Shown: in pieces, positions 940 through 49,222 of the stretch
Position numbering within the stretch: position 1 is the stretch's first letter
How the letters are laid out: every line of letters begins with the position of its first letter
Source of the DNA: Octopus vulgaris
Taxonomy: Eukaryota
Assembly (NCBI GenBank): GCA_951406725.2
Contig: OX597831.1
Coordinates: 71,796,001 to 71,860,000 of the forward strand
Length of the DNA stretch: 64,000 nucleotides
Reading direction: 5' to 3'
Notes under the pieces: model-generated
What the model was told of the DNA's origin: nothing
Seen by the model: only the letters and a program-made list of their open reading frames with translations
The model's database searches: none
Made by a program: the position numbers and the translations under genes

Positions 940-1260
940 CGTGAGTACAGGACACCACAACTAGACGTAGAACTCAACGAGAAACGAAAACGGAAACACA
1001 AGCATGGAACAAACCATTTTTTTACAACAGAAAAACAGAGTACAAGACAAACTACACATGGAAAAATCCCCTTCATCAGCTGTCTCTAGTTCAACTCTAG
1101 CGTGTTTCGAAGGTAAGACAGAACACGACTCGTAAAAAATAGCCCTTCCTGCGAGAGAATTAAAATAAAATTACTTCGCAGAGGGGTAAAAACAAAGAAA
1201 GAAAAAATGTAACACAAACAGGACGTAAAAACGATACAAATAAAAATACAAAATAAAATA
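940..1260 (-). mobile_element. Non-autonomous (TA)n-associated element carrying a permuted hammerhead motif
   Basis: Same layout as 20870-21212 and 24780-25310 (plus strand ...CAGGAC/GG...purine-rich...CCCTTCATCAG...); abuts a TA-rich tract. Boundaries approximate. Confidence 0.55.
1068..1127 (-). ncRNA. Hammerhead-like motif, non-circularly permuted strand order (copy A)
   Basis: Minus strand: CGTG-T-T-CTGTCT-ta-CCTTC-GAAA-CACG-15nt-AGACAG-CTGATGA-A-GGGG. Confidence 0.6.
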
Positions 1261-3204: not shown

Positions 3205-3444
3205 TTTATTGCATTTTATTGCAGAAACAGGTGTAAGCTAACAATGTTCATAGGATAAATAGAAATATGGCTATTTCTAAGTCTCTCTAAAGGAGACTAC
3301 AGCAGCGGTATTGGATCGCCAAGGATAGGATAATCGTTGATTCCCTTATCTTCGCATCCTCTCTCTCTTTCTCTCTCACACACATTCTTTTATTCTTTAC
3401 TTGTTTCAGTCGTTTGACTGCGGCTATGCTGGAGCACCAAATTG

Positions 3445-3500
<56 letters not shown>

Positions 3501-3705
3501 CTGAAACAAGTAAAGAATAAAAGAATGTGTGTGAGAGAGAATGAGAGAGAGAATGCGAAGATAAGGGAATCAACGATTATCCTATCCTTGGCGATCCAAT
3601 ACCGCTGCTGTAGTCTCCTTTAGAGAGACTTAGAAATAGCCATATTTCTATTTATCCTATGAACATTGTTAGCTTACACCTGTTTCTGCAATAAAATGCA
3701 ATAAA
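3205..3705. repeat. Inverted duplication, ~206-bp arms (3205-3410 / 3500-3705)
   Basis: TTTATTGCATTTTATTGCAG...TTGTTTCAGT is the near-exact reverse complement of ACTGAAACAA...TGCAATAAA; the spacer ends in (TA)n. Confidence 0.9.
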
Positions 3706-9403: not shown

Positions 9404-9612
9404 TTAATCCAAACAAGAAAGCACAAAAAAAAAACACAACAACGCGAGGACGTGGAACAAATATAGTATTATTGGACGCTCAGGAAAGAAGGAAAGAAGG
9501 AGGGTTTAACGTTTCGAGCGGAGCTCTTCGTCGGAAACATAGGAGAAGGAAAGATCCAGAGAAGGGAAGACAAAAGGAAAAAAATCGCCAACGTTACACA
9601 CGAGGTCACATA
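9400..9612 (-). mobile_element. ~210-bp non-autonomous element (family F1) with minimal type I hammerhead at 9504-9538
   Basis: Near-identical to 10925-11131 and 49020-49222; each abuts (TA)n at AAGTTAATCC. Motif GTTT-CCGACGA-A-GAGC-TCC-GCTC-GAAA-CGTT-AAAC. Confidence 0.75.
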
Positions 9613-9931: not shown

Positions 9932-10314
9932 ATTATATGTAGAAAAATACAAACTGGGACAAGAACGTAAAACATTTAGAAGACGATACAAAAACACGGA
10001 CGGGACATTCGAAGCCTTCAATCTTCAGTCAAGAACCGGATCATCCTAGCAATTTCAGCTGATTATATATATGTTAATGCAGAAGACGGAGTGTAACTAG
10101 AAGCATTTATTAGCACAACAATCGTTTCGGTTTCATTCTGCACGGCTCCATTGTGGACGTGGAACGATGTAATAACACCAGATACAACGCACAGTGCAAA
10201 AGTATCAGGTGACGTAAGATGCTTCACAAGTTCCCTGATTTACATTTCATTTTCGCTTCAAGTTATATGCTGATGGTGAAATGCAAGTAGTTCGGGGGGA
10301 CACATACACGTGCA

Positions 10315-10821: not shown

Positions 10822-11131
<310 letters not shown>

Positions 11132-11570: not shown

Positions 11571-12118
11571 ACTTATATATATATTTATATATATATATGT
11601 ATCTAGACTCTTACTCTAGCTTTTATTCCCACTCCCATTTTCTTCTTTTCTCTCGTTCTCCCTCTCTCACATTTCTTTGCCCTCTTTCTTTAACTCCCAC
11701 TATTTCTCACTCGTTTATCTCCCCTGCATCTTTCTCTTCGTCTCTGCTTTTTTTTTCTAATCCTTCAATCCCGCTGTCCCCTACCCATTTCTCCTCTTTC
11801 CACGTAACCGGTGTCCGGCCAGCCATGGTTTTTCTTTCTTTAGCCTGACTGTTGACCGTCAACACGTCTTGTGTCCGTCTCCCATCTTCCTGCCTTTAGG
11901 CTTTCACTCCACACACGCCAGCTCAATTTGTAACGTTCTCAGTCGAAAGACGCCTGTTGATATTTCTTGTTGTTTGTATTCGTAATTCTGTAACATGTTC
12001 TCCGTTTCTTTTTGCTTGTTTGTTTGTTTTTTGCCTTTGTTGCCGTACACATTCGCTAGCTTTTTTACAAAGGGGTCTAATGCTCTTAGCTTAGACTATT
12101 TGGGGACAACCAGATTGA

Positions 12119-12181
12119 ACCATCTCAAATGTAACTGTCCGAAATGGTCGTGACTTCTGGTACTTGACTGATGAAAGAAAG
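12119..12181 (+). ncRNA. Hammerhead-like motif, non-circularly permuted order, divergent stems (copy E)
   Basis: ACCA-T-C-TCAAat-gtaa-CTGTCC-GAAA-TGGT-13nt-acTTGA-CTGATGA-A-AGAAAG; stem II has two mismatches. Confidence 0.5.
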
Positions 12182-12278
12182 CTCTTTTTTGCTTGTCCTT
12201 CTAATTGTTGTTTCTTGTGTCGGCCTTTGTGTCGTCTACCTGTCCGAACGTTTTAATGCCCCCTATTGTGTCTTTATT

Positions 12279-12319
<41 letters not shown>

Positions 12320-12581: not shown

Positions 12582-13819
12582 GGGTTGAAAACGCCTTAAA
12601 ATTTTAAACAAATTTATTTTAATATGGGACAGAACCGCCTTTGGCAGCAATTACAGCTTGAATTTTAAGAGATATGGACTCGTACAAAGTTTCAATTGTT
12701 TCTAAAGGAATTTTTGTCCATTCTTCAGCTAAAACAGTCTCCAGTTCTTGCAGTGATGATGGTAGAGGATATCGACTCCTTACTTGTTTTTTTAAAATGC
12801 ACCATAAATGTTCAATGATATTGAGATTTGGTGTCTGTGGTGGTCAGATAAGATGTTCAACTTCACTGGAATGTTCCTCGTGCCATTCAATAATAACTTA
12901 AGCTCTGTGAATTGGTGCATTATCATCCTGAAAGATTGCGTTTCCCCCCAGAAACCGTTCCACAACCATAGGATTAAACTGATCAGATAAAATGCTTAAA
13001 TAGTCTTGACTATTAGTTCTGTCATGAAGGGAAACCACTGGGCTAGCAGATTTGCAAGATATAGCGCCCCAGATCATCACAGATCCTCCTCCATGTTTAA
13101 CAGTTGGAAGAAGGCAGTCTTGATCAAATGCTTCTTTTTGGCTGTCTCCACACGTATACTCGGCCGGTGGTCGGAAATAAAATAAAGGATGATTCTTCCA
13201 CTGTTCTAGGGACCAATTCTGTAGGTTTTTACTCCACTCTGAAAGCTTTGCAACGTTTGATTTTGAAAGTAGTGGTTTTCTGTTTGCAGTCCTCCCGTGA
13301 AATCCGGCTTTGTGCAGCTCCTGGCGAACAGTTTTTGTAGAAACTGGGTTCTCGAGGTGGTCATTAACCTCTGCAGTAATTTTAGGAGCTGTACTTTTGT
13401 GATCCTTTCTAGCAATTCGCGTAAGAATACGAAGGCCCCTGTCCGAAAGTTTTGGTTTTCTTCTGGAGTTTTGTTTCAACAAGGAGGTTTTTGCCACTTT
13501 ATCAAAGGTTGTCATTACTTTCGAGACACTTCTTCTTGATACACCAAACATTTCGGCTGTTTCCGTTACTCTAGCGCCTGCCATACGAACACCAACAATT
13601 TGACCTCTTTGAAAGTCCGATAGATCTGTTATTTTAATGAATTTTAATTACCTTTTTCTGATGATACCTGAAAAGAAACAGCAATTTTAGCAAAACATTT
13701 TAAGCAACACAAAAAAGAAAAAAAAACATAAAAATAAACAAACTTTTGACGGTTTTATAGATATCTCAATATTATGATGCCATGATGCTAGGTGTTTCCA
13801 TTATTTTGTCCAACAGCTG
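12579..13819 (-). mobile_element. Tc1-family DNA transposon, defective, DD36E spacing
   Basis: TIR remnants CAGGGGTTG..AAACGCC and CAGCTGTTGGACAAAATAATGGAAACACC lie in or next to TA tracts. Transposase motifs DLSDFQRGQIVG, RKPLL, PTVKHGGGSVMIWG, FQDDNAPIH, PPQTPNLNIIEHLW, AVIAAKGG. The first catalytic Asp motif is missing and there are two stops. Confidence 0.92.
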
Positions 13820-20869: not shown

Positions 20870-21212
20870 TGTGGGCACAGGACGTCAAAAATGTGTTCAA
20901 CAGAAAAATACGAAGTACGAGTACATGAAATATGAACTAGTTTTTCGAACAATGAAAGACACAAATGGAAAACAAGACAAACAACACAAAGAACAACCCT
21001 TCATCAGTTGTCGGGTGTTTTTCTTCTCTCGTATTTCGAGCATTTAACAACAATATACGCTTTCGATAAAACAGTTGCTCCCGCAAAGCAAATTAAATAA
21101 AATTTGGGGTTTTGCGGAGGATCAAAATTGGTAGCACAAACAGGACAGTGAAAACAAACAGGAAGGGCTGCTATGCTTAAACGAGGTTGTGGTGGCGAAC
21201 GCGTAAATTAAG
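20870..21212 (-). mobile_element. Non-autonomous element carrying a permuted hammerhead (copy B)
   Basis: Alignable along its length to 24780-25115; flanked by TA/TACA tracts. Confidence 0.7.
20996..21059 (-). ncRNA. Hammerhead-like motif, non-circularly permuted order (copy B)
   Basis: CGTA-T-A-TTGTTG-ttaaat-GCTC-GAAA-TACG-16nt-CGACAA-CTGATGA-A-GGGT. Confidence 0.62.
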
Positions 21213-24779: not shown

Positions 24780-25310
24780 CATATGTGGGCACAGGAGGTC
24801 ACAAAACATAAACAAAAATTAATACGAAATACGAGGATGTGGAATAAGGATTTTTTGCAAGCAACGAAAGAAACAAATGGAAAACAAGACAAGAAACACA
24901 AGGAACGACCCTTCATCAGTTGTCGGCTGTTTTTCTAATCCGTATTTCGAGCAATTCACGACAAGATACGCCTTCGATAAAGTAGTTGCTCTCGCAAAGC
25001 AAATTAAATAAAATTTGCGATCTTGAAGAGAATCAAGATTGGTGATAAAAGCAGGACAGTGAAAACAAACAGGAAGGGCTGCTAAGCCTAAATGAGGTTG
25101 TGGTGGCGAACGCGAAGAAACAAATCTGGACAGGAGACAGAGAACAATATGTCTTCCCTGTCCAGCTGAAATAAGAAGAAAGAAAGAAACACAAGTTAGG
25201 AGAATGACCGATGGTCACGTGGGAGCCACGTGAGCAAAGGAGGCAGAGTGAGGGAGAGAGAGTCACAGACAGAGAACTGTGAAGGGGTGAGGAAAAGATT
25301 TGGAGACAGG
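24780..25310 (-). mobile_element. Non-autonomous element carrying a permuted hammerhead (copy C), nested in an S1 SINE
   Basis: Lies between the S1 3' half (~24480-24650) and the S1 head (~25315-25465), next to the SINE's internal TA tract. Confidence 0.7.
24908..24970 (-). ncRNA. Hammerhead-like motif, non-circularly permuted order (copy C, best preserved)
   Basis: CGTA-T-C-TTGTCG-tgaatt-GCTC-GAAA-TACG-15nt-CGACAA-CTGATGA-A-GGGT. Confidence 0.68.
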
Positions 25311-37382: not shown

Positions 37383-37797
37383 TATCTCTTTATTGCCCAC
37401 AGGGGCCTAAACATAGAGGGGACAAACAAAGACAGACAAAAGGATTAAGTCAATTACATCGACTGCAGTACGTAACTGGTACTTATTTAATCGACCTCGA
37501 AAGGATGAAAGGCAAAGTCGACCTCGACGGAATTTGAACTCACAACGTAGCGGCAGACGAAATACCTATTTCTTTATTACCCACAAGCGGCTAAACATAG
37601 AGGGGACAAACAAGGATAGATATAGGTATTAAGTCGATTACATCGACCCCAGTGCGTAACTGGTACATAATTTATCGACCCCGAAAGGATGAAAGGCAAA
37701 GTCGACCTCGGCGGAATTTGAACTCAGAACGTAACGGCAGACGAAATACCGCTAAGCATTTCGCCCGACGTGCTAGCGAGACTGTCAGCTCACCGCC
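37383..37797 (-). mobile_element. S2 SINE with a 184-bp tandem repeat of its 3' portion
   Basis: CTAAACATAGAGGGG occurs at 37407 and 37591. Confidence 0.85.
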
Positions 37798-43002: not shown

Positions 43003-43397
43003 AGAGCTAAACATAGAGGGGACAAACAAGGACAGACGAAGCGATTGAGTCGATTATATCGCCCCCAGTGCGAAACTGGTACTTTATTTATCGACCCCGA
43101 AAGGTTGAAAGGCAAAGTTGACCTCGGTGGAATTTGAACTCAGAACGTAACGACAGACGAAATACCTATTTCTTTATTACCCACAAGGGGCTAAACACAG
43201 AGGGGACAAACAAGGACAGACAAAGTGATTGAGTCGATTATATCGACCCCAGTGCGTAACTGGTACTTATTTAATCGACCCCGAAAGGATGAAAGACAAA
43301 GTTGACCTCGGCGGAATTTGAACTCAGAACGTAACGACAGACGAAATACCGCTAAGCATTGCGCCCGGTGTGCTAACGATTCTGCCAGCTCGCCACC
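43003..43397 (-). mobile_element. S2 SINE with a 184-bp tandem repeat of its 3' portion
   Basis: GCTAAACA.AGAGGGG occurs at ~43006 and 43190; the junction is identical to the 37.5-kb locus. Confidence 0.85.
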
Positions 43398-44530: not shown

Positions 44531-44589
<59 letters not shown>

Positions 44590-44591
<2 letters not shown>

Positions 44592-44732
44592 TGAGGATTA
44601 AGTAGATAGGCAGCCGACAGCTGATGAAGGGTCATTCTTTATGTTGCTTGTCCTATTTTCCATTTGTTTCTCTCGTTGTTTGTGTATTCAACTCATGTTG
44701 TTTACTGTTTGTGACGTCCTGTACTCATATAT
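44590..44732 (+). mobile_element. 5'-truncated copy (D) of the permuted-hammerhead element
   Basis: CAGC-CGACAG-CTGATGA-AGGGT...GTGACGTCCTGTACTCATATATGC is the reverse complement of the copy B/C ends; starts at a (TA)n. Confidence 0.65.
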
Positions 44733-47042: not shown

Positions 47043-47206
47043 ACGCAGGAGTGGCTGTGTTGTAAGTAGCTTGTTTACCAACCACATGGTTCCGGGTTCA
47101 GTCCCACTGCGTGGCACCTTGGGCAAGTGTCTTCTACTATAGCCTCGGGTCGACCAAAGCCTTGTGAGTGGATTTGGGAGGCGGAAACTGAAAGAAGCCC
47201 GTCGTA

Positions 47207-47252
<46 letters not shown>

Positions 47253-47374
47253 TACGACGGTTTGGTCGGCCCGAGGCTATAGTAGAAGACACTTGCCCAA
47301 GGTGCCACGCAGTGGGACTGAAACCGGAACCATGTCGTTGGTAAACAAGCTACTTACAACACAGCCACTCCTGC

Positions 47375-49024: not shown

Positions 49025-49222
49025 TAATCCAAACATGAAAACACAAAGAGAAAACACAACAACGCGAGGACGTGGGACAAATATAGTATTATTGGAAGGA
49101 AGGGAAGAAGAAGGGTTTAACGTTTCGAGCAGAGCTCTTCGTCAGAAACATAGAAAAAGGAAACATCCAGAGAAGGGAAGACGGAGGAAAAAAATCGCCA
49201 ACGGTACACACACGGTCACACA
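49020..49222 (-). mobile_element. Family F1 element with canonical-core minimal hammerhead at 49115-49149
   Basis: GTTT-CTGACGA-A-GAGC-TCT-GCTC-GAAA-CGTT-AAAC. Confidence 0.78.

Follow-up and report, generated by a model that had tools for sequence, protein, structure and literature searches.

Does a repeat in the genome of Octopus vulgaris that carries the conserved boxes of a hammerhead ribozyme in reversed order, with no pairing partner for stem II beside them, represent a decayed copy of a known ribozyme type or a different wiring of the same core? The repeat lies in a stretch of 64,000 nucleotides (contig OX597831.1, positions 71,796,001 to 71,860,000, assembly GCA_951406725.2), here called the window. 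The motifs reported at 12119-12181 by a first-pass annotation made from the sequence are present as described: ACCA (12119-12122), UC (12123-12124), UCAAAU (12125-12130), CUGUCC (12135-12140), GAAA (12141-12144), UGGU (12145-12148), ACUUGA (12162-12167), CUGAUGA (12168-12174) and AAGAAAG (12175-12181). A cleavage block is followed by the GAAA block and then the CUGAUGA block, which is the reversed (S-G-C) hammerhead order. The CUGAnGA, GAAA and UH boxes are all found in the window copy, and each fixed position is kept in 27 to 30 of 30 copies of its repeat family, designated family A. Stem III has four pairs plus A15.1-U16.1, and stem I has five of six pairs, the mismatch of A12129 with C12163 being the sole defect in the core and stems. 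The expectation that a consensus would restore stem I held, as G occupies 12129 in 95 of 110 family copies, 93 of them forming a G-C pair with 12163. CUGUCC and AAGAAAG are unpaired (+0.3 kcal/mol).

The first-pass annotation had taken AAGAAAG to be a stem II strand decayed in this copy from a consensus GGACAG, and had named a genome search with 11800-12280 as the check, with a consensus that kept the mismatches counting against decay. That search returned 3,132 candidates, of which 40 were scored (82-87% identity), and the resulting consensus does not contain GGACAG. Our family A sample comprised 114 distinct copies (30 from the homology search plus 90 of 99 pattern matches, less six duplicates). 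AAGAAAG is the family state, present in 29 or 30 of 30 copies at every position, and none of 111 copies has GGAC or GGGC in the eight nucleotides after the core. The reading as an ordinary type SGC hammerhead, in which CUGUCC once paired with the strand after CUGAUGA and only the window copy has lost the helix, does fit the block order, and in families B and C, described below, up to about -2 to -3 kcal/mol of weak pairing is available to the strand after the core, through four pairs that include G-U. However, the registers downstream of the core in family A are only 41, 54, 51 and 17% paired, and in an alignment of family A with its homologue, family D, the downstream strand is 18% and 38% paired, no better than shuffles, and lacks covariation, whereas an upstream strand covaries. 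The decayed reading is refuted for families A and D, and we consider it highly improbable overall.

Instead, stem II is intact and pairs with a strand from upstream of the cleavage block, 11 nucleotides before the 5' limit first assigned to the motifs. In family A, GGACA (12104-12108) pairs with UGUCC (12136-12140) in 427 of 480 alignment cells. The joint A/D superfamily alignment was a plain MAFFT alignment of 31 hand-picked copies chosen by their CUGAnGA, GAAA and UH boxes, and those boxes are invariant in it by virtue of that selection. Here the upstream partner is paired in 150 of 155 cells (96.8%) with two-sided changes in three of five pairs, as against 8-39% for slid-register controls. 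Stems I, II and III, the 5' strand of stem II being the upstream one, all covary around the core (95.5-96.8% paired, three to four two-sided pairs each). The tertiary contact that joins stem I to stem II is also represented, as an interaction helix that is 91.6% paired across the 31 rows with two-sided changes in four of its five pairs. For the complete five-helix model, 18 of 29 pairs have two-sided changes, a value reached in none of 500 shuffles. The copies of family A also show a linked switch between A-U and G-C in stem II (46, 12, 10 and 24; Fisher p 5e-6), with the linkage broken in 22 of 92. The covarying cells were inherited by subfamilies, and therefore represent few independent events. 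Inserted copies diverge in the core (3.6%) and stems (4.1%) as they do in the flank (4.1%), with 6.7% in the linkers, which indicates no selection after insertion.

The same arrangement is found beyond family A. Stem II reads GGCUG/CAGCC in family D, GAGCAA/UUGCUC in B, GAAGG/CCUUC in C, GACACC/GGUGUC in E and GCACC/GGUGC in F, and the upstream duplex (-5.7 to -9.8) is more stable than the adjacent downstream duplex (+0.7 to -3.3) in all 11 representatives. Among 157 core hits in the window and 728 kb of loci picked for these families (0 hits in five shuffles), 120 score at least 4 for an upstream partner. Only 2 reach that score immediately downstream, and 36 do so when the downstream window is made as wide as the upstream one.

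The predicted fold starts at 12058, so that the interval 12119-12181 contains the motifs but is too narrow as a boundary (Table 1). From 5' to 3', it consists of an outer-helix strand, a hairpin, the stem II strand, an interaction strand, the cleavage block, the GAAA block, the interaction partner, the stem I strand, CUGAUGA and the outer-helix partner. Strand order, helices and hairpin can be read directly from the aligned sequences, and, compared at that level, the wiring is that of type SGC with the last two strands shifted to the front, which leaves the chain open between A9 and G10.1. An equivalent hairpin lies between the outer-helix and stem II strands in families B, C, D and F. The outer helix is weak across A and D (67.7% paired) and poor in family E; it also appears in the free-energy fold of the window copy. 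The pseudoknot-free minimum-energy fold of that copy is a different rod that buries the core (z -1.9). We infer that A9 enters the outer helix and the hairpin leads into G10.1, such that a four-way-like junction would replace the usual A9-G10.1 link; the outer helix and hairpin would stack, meeting stem II and the A9-G12 pair at the junction, and the usual G12/G8 active site could still form.

Table 1. Elements of the predicted split-core fold, the repeat that carries it and related sites in the window
Feature	Position	Strand	Details
Outer helix, 5' strand	12058..12066	+	Pairs with 12175-12183; -7.1 kcal/mol; 641 of 671 cells paired in family A
Hairpin between outer-helix strand and stem II 5' strand	12068..12102	+	-11.5 kcal/mol; 1 of 500 shuffles equally stable
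Stem II 5' strand, GGACA, upstream of cleavage block	12104..12108	+	G12104 is G10.1; pairs with 12136-12140
Stem I-II interaction helix, 5' strand	12109..12114	+	Pairs with 12156-12161; 533 of 594 cells paired
Stem III 3' strand and AUC triplet	12119..12124	+	Predicted cut, placed by comparison with known hammerheads, between 12124 and 12125
Stem I 3' strand	12125..12130	+	Includes mismatched A12129
Block G: stem II 3' strand UGUCC, GAAA box, stem III 5' strand UGGU	12136..12148	+	
Interaction-helix 3' strand (12156-12161), stem I 5' strand (12162-12167), CUGAUGA (12168-12174)	12156..12174	+	
Outer helix, 3' strand	12175..12183	+	Directly after A9; the strand first read as decayed stem II
Family A copy, nearly full-length, of ~770-bp non-coding repeat	11597..12282	+	Lacks about 50-70 nt of the 5' start
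TA tract, 5' junction	11574..11598	.	
(AT)18 tract, fixed 3' end of element	12281..12316	.	
Family D ribozyme, 5'-truncated	10022..10065	-	Preceded by a TA tract; begins within a few nt 3' of the predicted cut
Family B, same layout	24913..24991	-	Second copy at about 21001-21080, minus strand
Truncated relative	about 44589-44627	+	
Family C, same layout	1073..1148	-	

A descriptor of the reversed order (stems I and III plus the boxes) found four sites in the window (12168 on the plus strand; 24919, 21007 and 1079 on the minus strand), with a mean of 0.09 and a maximum of 1 in 100 local shuffles of the window. The claim that sequence-distinct families share the permuted order was borne out. The further claim that the element is unrelated to the other copies applies to B, C and E, and fails for family D, represented in the same window at 10028 on the minus strand, which is homologous to A (62% over 647 nucleotides, E 4e-33). 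Family D is young (98-99% identity among the best 40 hits) and abundant, with 1,313 exact genome matches to a 38-mer and a seven-unit array of period ~830. In the 2.8 Gb genome searched, a joint A/D ribozyme pattern matched 4,730 sites and its reversed control none; no match to the A/D pattern was found in metagenome or viral contigs. A chance arrangement of short motifs might be entertained given that each stem has only 4-6 bp and that Rfam has no match: its scan of 11590-12285 gave no hammerhead even at E up to 10 and nothing else relevant, and the 150 of 382 whole-window matches listed included microsatellite-driven miRNA models. Set against these are the four window sites where 0.09 were expected from shuffles, the 4,730 genome sites versus zero, and the covariation, which already refute chance and leave it a negligible probability. 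The genome holds more families of split layout than the five studied; further examples were seen in flanking sequence at loci L063 (oriented 1244), L096 (1285), L003 (oriented 460) and L120 (oriented 491).

How does this wiring relate to those already described? Hammerhead types I, II and III have the circular orders CGS, GSC and SCG, none of which applies here, the order being S-G-C. That order and all core nucleotides are shared with type SGC, as in HRIMA-1 and its variants, which, in the accessible text of Eckert et al. 2023, also run from the site through GAAA to CUGAnGA and have a short linker between stems I and II and a helix joining the far sides of these stems (PMC10085705). In the same text, however, CUGAnGA of type SGC continues straight into stem II ('Block C'), and six permutations are counted on the assumption that Block C is uninterruptible (PMC10085705). 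The octopus families do not have an intact Block C, with the stem II 5' strand one or two nucleotides after CUGAnGA; in family A the stem II and interaction strands are 5' of the cleavage block, and in place of the link there is an outer helix with a hairpin. According to that text, type SGC is known only from metatranscriptomes (PMC10085705), whereas the split core is present in an animal genome in thousands of copies. The pistol-like pseudoknot hammerhead resembles the present case in that the core is kept while the periphery is rewired with an extra helix, but as portrayed in the sections available its A9 still runs into G10.1-C11.1 and its connectivity is different (PMC11300833). A viroid hammerhead is described, in the part of that paper at hand, as tolerating one extra nucleotide between A9 and G10.1 (PMC3705267). 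A core opened between these two positions is not described in the open-access literature searched, Eckert et al. being covered in the main text, nor does one appear in the accessible portions of PMC3088659, PMC10162972 and PMC13725137, the last of which mentions 'variants containing additional helices', citing an earlier reference. Judged by its sequence, the predicted RNA would be hammerhead-like and retrozyme-like, yet fall outside types I-III and, with Block C not intact, outside type SGC.

The carrier of the fold is a transposable repeat. The pyrimidine-rich element between TA tracts first noted at ~11600-12280 is real, spanning about 11597-12282. Full family A units are about 770 bp and non-coding; at the 3' side they always stop at a TA tract, while their 5' ends are scattered. 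The window copy is 84% identical to another copy over 707 nucleotides, has a 15-nucleotide deletion just 3' of the ribozyme, and contains a single frame of at least 80 amino acids, of low complexity and without ribozyme overlap. The (AT)18 tract is likely the insertion target. The window copy, with its single mismatch in stem I, is an old insertion and probably plays no role for the host. An unrelated 249-amino-acid fragment of a Tc1/mariner-type transposase (PF01498, E 1.6e-13) lies 600 nucleotides away on the minus strand (12898-13647). The motif CACGTGAC, presumably an E-box, recurs in families A, B and D about 280-330 nucleotides upstream of the ribozyme, at the end of the pyrimidine-rich part; the window's version is CACGTA (11801-11806). 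It may be an internal promoter, and a counterpart, CCACGTGG, is carried by the 5' end of Naiad_Ovul as published in the portion available.

Metazoan non-LTR retrozymes are likewise non-coding and tandem or dispersed, with one hammerhead per unit, and are depicted in the available text of two reports as 150-450 bp units with a type I hammerhead, proposed to be non-autonomous partners of Penelope-like elements (PMC7229834; bioRxiv 10.64898/2026.07.22.740005). Families A and D share the non-coding tandem unit with one hammerhead, but their hammerhead is not of type I; unlike retrozymes, they have a split S-G-C core, units of 770-850 bp and TA targeting, and are known here from genomic copies. A separate repeat in the window carries a type I hammerhead in the minimal, Penelope-like form, at approximately 49115-49152, 11021-11058 and 9504-9541, all on the minus strand, with CUGA kept in the first and CCGA in the other two. 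Other repeats include a 184-bp unit in two-copy tandem at 37383-37750 and 43006-43350, and inverted repeat-piece pairs around TA tracts (3326-3584 and 47086-47333), for which Rfam long hairpins scored below threshold.

The marks listed for Penelope-like elements and Naiads in the accessible text of Craig et al. 2021 are a (TA)n target for Naiads, tails of 30-40 nucleotides, partial tandems and inverted 5' pieces (PMC8557442). Families A and D bear the marks of non-autonomous Penelope-type elements, all four of which are read directly from genomic copies. Among 90 family D copies (contig C1), 10 cross the TA junction into the next unit, seven of them as tails of about 25-45 nucleotides, an inverted ribozyme piece occurs in four, and an upstream tandem in six; family A examples are at loci L008, L013 and L026. 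Full A and D units run from TA tract to TA tract without an ORF, the GIY-YIG and RT ORF of Naiads being absent.

In the same publication, as far as accessible, Naiads are said to have no canonical hammerheads, eight being marked 'HHR_half_core', Naiad_Ovul included (PMC8557442). When the few consensus sequences available in its supplement (a selection, not a census) were read by eye, the ends of Naiad_Obim and Naiad_Ovul were arranged in the same split fashion, the stem II partner lying upstream, and so were the ends of Naiad_Plae and of the preceding record (Naiad-2_Movir by table order); no split motif was seen in the printed ends of Naiad_Dcar and Naiad_Omin, both marked incomplete. Naiads share with A and D the target, the tails, the partial tandems and the inverted 5' pieces and, in four of these consensus sequences, a 3' UTR of split layout (PMC8557442), whereas neither A nor D contains an ORF, and outside the fold no homology of either to a Naiad 3' end was detected. 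A motif from the published Octopus Naiad consensus (Obim-type) has 141 exact matches in the genome, with RT fragments upstream (RVT_1, E 1.3e-5, below the curated cut-off).

The reverse transcriptase that moved A and D was likely of Penelope type and probably a Naiad, a partner proposed from these shared marks. A mover other than Naiad, either another Penelope-like clade or a HERO-type element acting with an active ribozyme, is possible, though we think it the less likely case. In its favor, family A gave no blastn match to the one Naiad 3' end compared, and cephalopod Naiads are described, in the accessible text, as long inactive, old remnants (PMC8557442), whereas D copies are 98-99% alike. 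No autonomous partner was found beside A or D copies among the frames listed for 115 loci. The targeting of (TA)n, together with the tails, the partial tandems and the inverted 5' pieces, nevertheless points to a Naiad or another Penelope-like element, these being the marks given for such elements in the text available (PMC8557442). With regard to HERO-type elements, a single HERO-like frame, cut off by the repeat, was found beside family B in 1 of 30 loci. This broken RLE/HERO-like ORF end (L039:1-1170), which we take to be HERO, is directly upstream of the family B copy and probably reflects nested insertion; a HERO link for family B, having the one locus L039 behind it, was set aside.

Whether the RNA cuts itself may be recorded in the 5' ends of the copies. 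We examined 90 family D copies, all on contig C1, neighboring pairs included, which had been chosen by a pattern 3' of the cut. Of the 5' ends, the 49 lying within 103 nucleotides were binned (L292, with an internal deletion, was excluded, and three rows scored 41 were rescored 38, the extra letters being TA tract); those near 165-190 arise where the alignment breaks off against another subfamily. Successive bins of ~20 nucleotides hold 5, 28, 6, 3 and 5 ends, and the bin with 28 is the one immediately 3' of the predicted cut at 12124/12125. That is, 28 of 90 copies start within 20 nucleotides 3' of the cut and six just 5' of it (p 2e-4), and the peak bin is not richer in TA or AT dinucleotides. 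Because so many family D copies begin just 3' of the predicted cut, we regard self-cleavage as likely; the pile-up is the pattern expected from reverse transcriptase running off a cut RNA, an indirect sign. In family A, 5' ends were not in excess at the cut (10 versus 6, p 0.45; L127, with an internal deletion, excluded). The mode of the family D ends lies 9-12 nucleotides 3' of the predicted cut and not at it, with four copies starting exactly at the cut. In both families 5' ends cluster where the stem II 3' strand begins (window 12136, about 11 nucleotides 3' of the predicted cut), with 4 of 90 copies in A and 12 of 90 within four nucleotides in D.

A different interpretation is that the fold is real and conserved but cleaves slowly or not at all, serving as a binding or pause site for a retroelement protein, such that the pile-up reflects stalling or template switching by the reverse transcriptase. 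Most D ends do fall 9-12 nucleotides short of the cut, where the stem II 3' strand begins, as do those of four A copies, and hammerhead mutants had no effect on insertion by the anole Penelope RT in the text available (PMC11167929). Yet unrelated families retain all the catalytic nucleotides, along with a variable N7 and a non-G at position 17, the density of 5' ends falls from 28 to 6 at the predicted cut, and an RT at those positions would already have displaced the 3' partner of every helix. We judge the non-cleaving interpretation unlikely.

The explanation that we consider probable is that a non-coding, (TA)n-flanked repeat carries a predicted split-core ribozyme, with an S-G-C core and an upstream-paired stem II, which likely divides the repeat's RNA into templates of unit length that a reverse transcriptase of Penelope type, probably that of a Naiad, would copy. 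Tandem or read-through (multimeric) transcripts would be cut after AUC. The Penelope-type RT would nick a (TA)n target and prime internally at the TA junction, about 160 nucleotides 3' of the cut, or one tail further, consistent with the anole Penelope element, in which reverse transcription is reported, in the part accessible, to start at these places (PMC11167929). On a cut linear RNA the RT would run off near the cut and leave short copies, whereas it would pass the cut if the template were a re-ligated circle or a multimer that had stayed uncut, giving long copies like that in the window, and tandems. The same source reports hammerhead cleavage to be dispensable for insertion of the anole element in vitro (PMC11167929). 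Somewhat less firmly, we favor a broader reading, in which hammerheads have a seventh natural wiring beyond the six permutations: the catalytic strand would open between A9 and G10.1, and a four-way junction would close it. This form may be the missing ribozyme of Naiads across animal phyla and may drive a large class of octopus RNA circles that are TA-targeted and retrozyme-like, their cut templates leaving a record in the 5' ends of genomic copies.

Current hammerhead searches assume stem II directly after CUGAnGA, and as such miss the split form altogether. If the RNA does cleave, the limit of six permutations would be overturned, and a ribozyme that is not circularly permuted would be present in animal genomes in thousands of copies. 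Genomic 5' ends would then report on cleavage in vivo, and what ribozymes and RNA circles contribute to Penelope-type transposition could be tested directly with RNAs of ~130 nucleotides. The puzzle of Naiads 'lacking' a hammerhead would also be removed.
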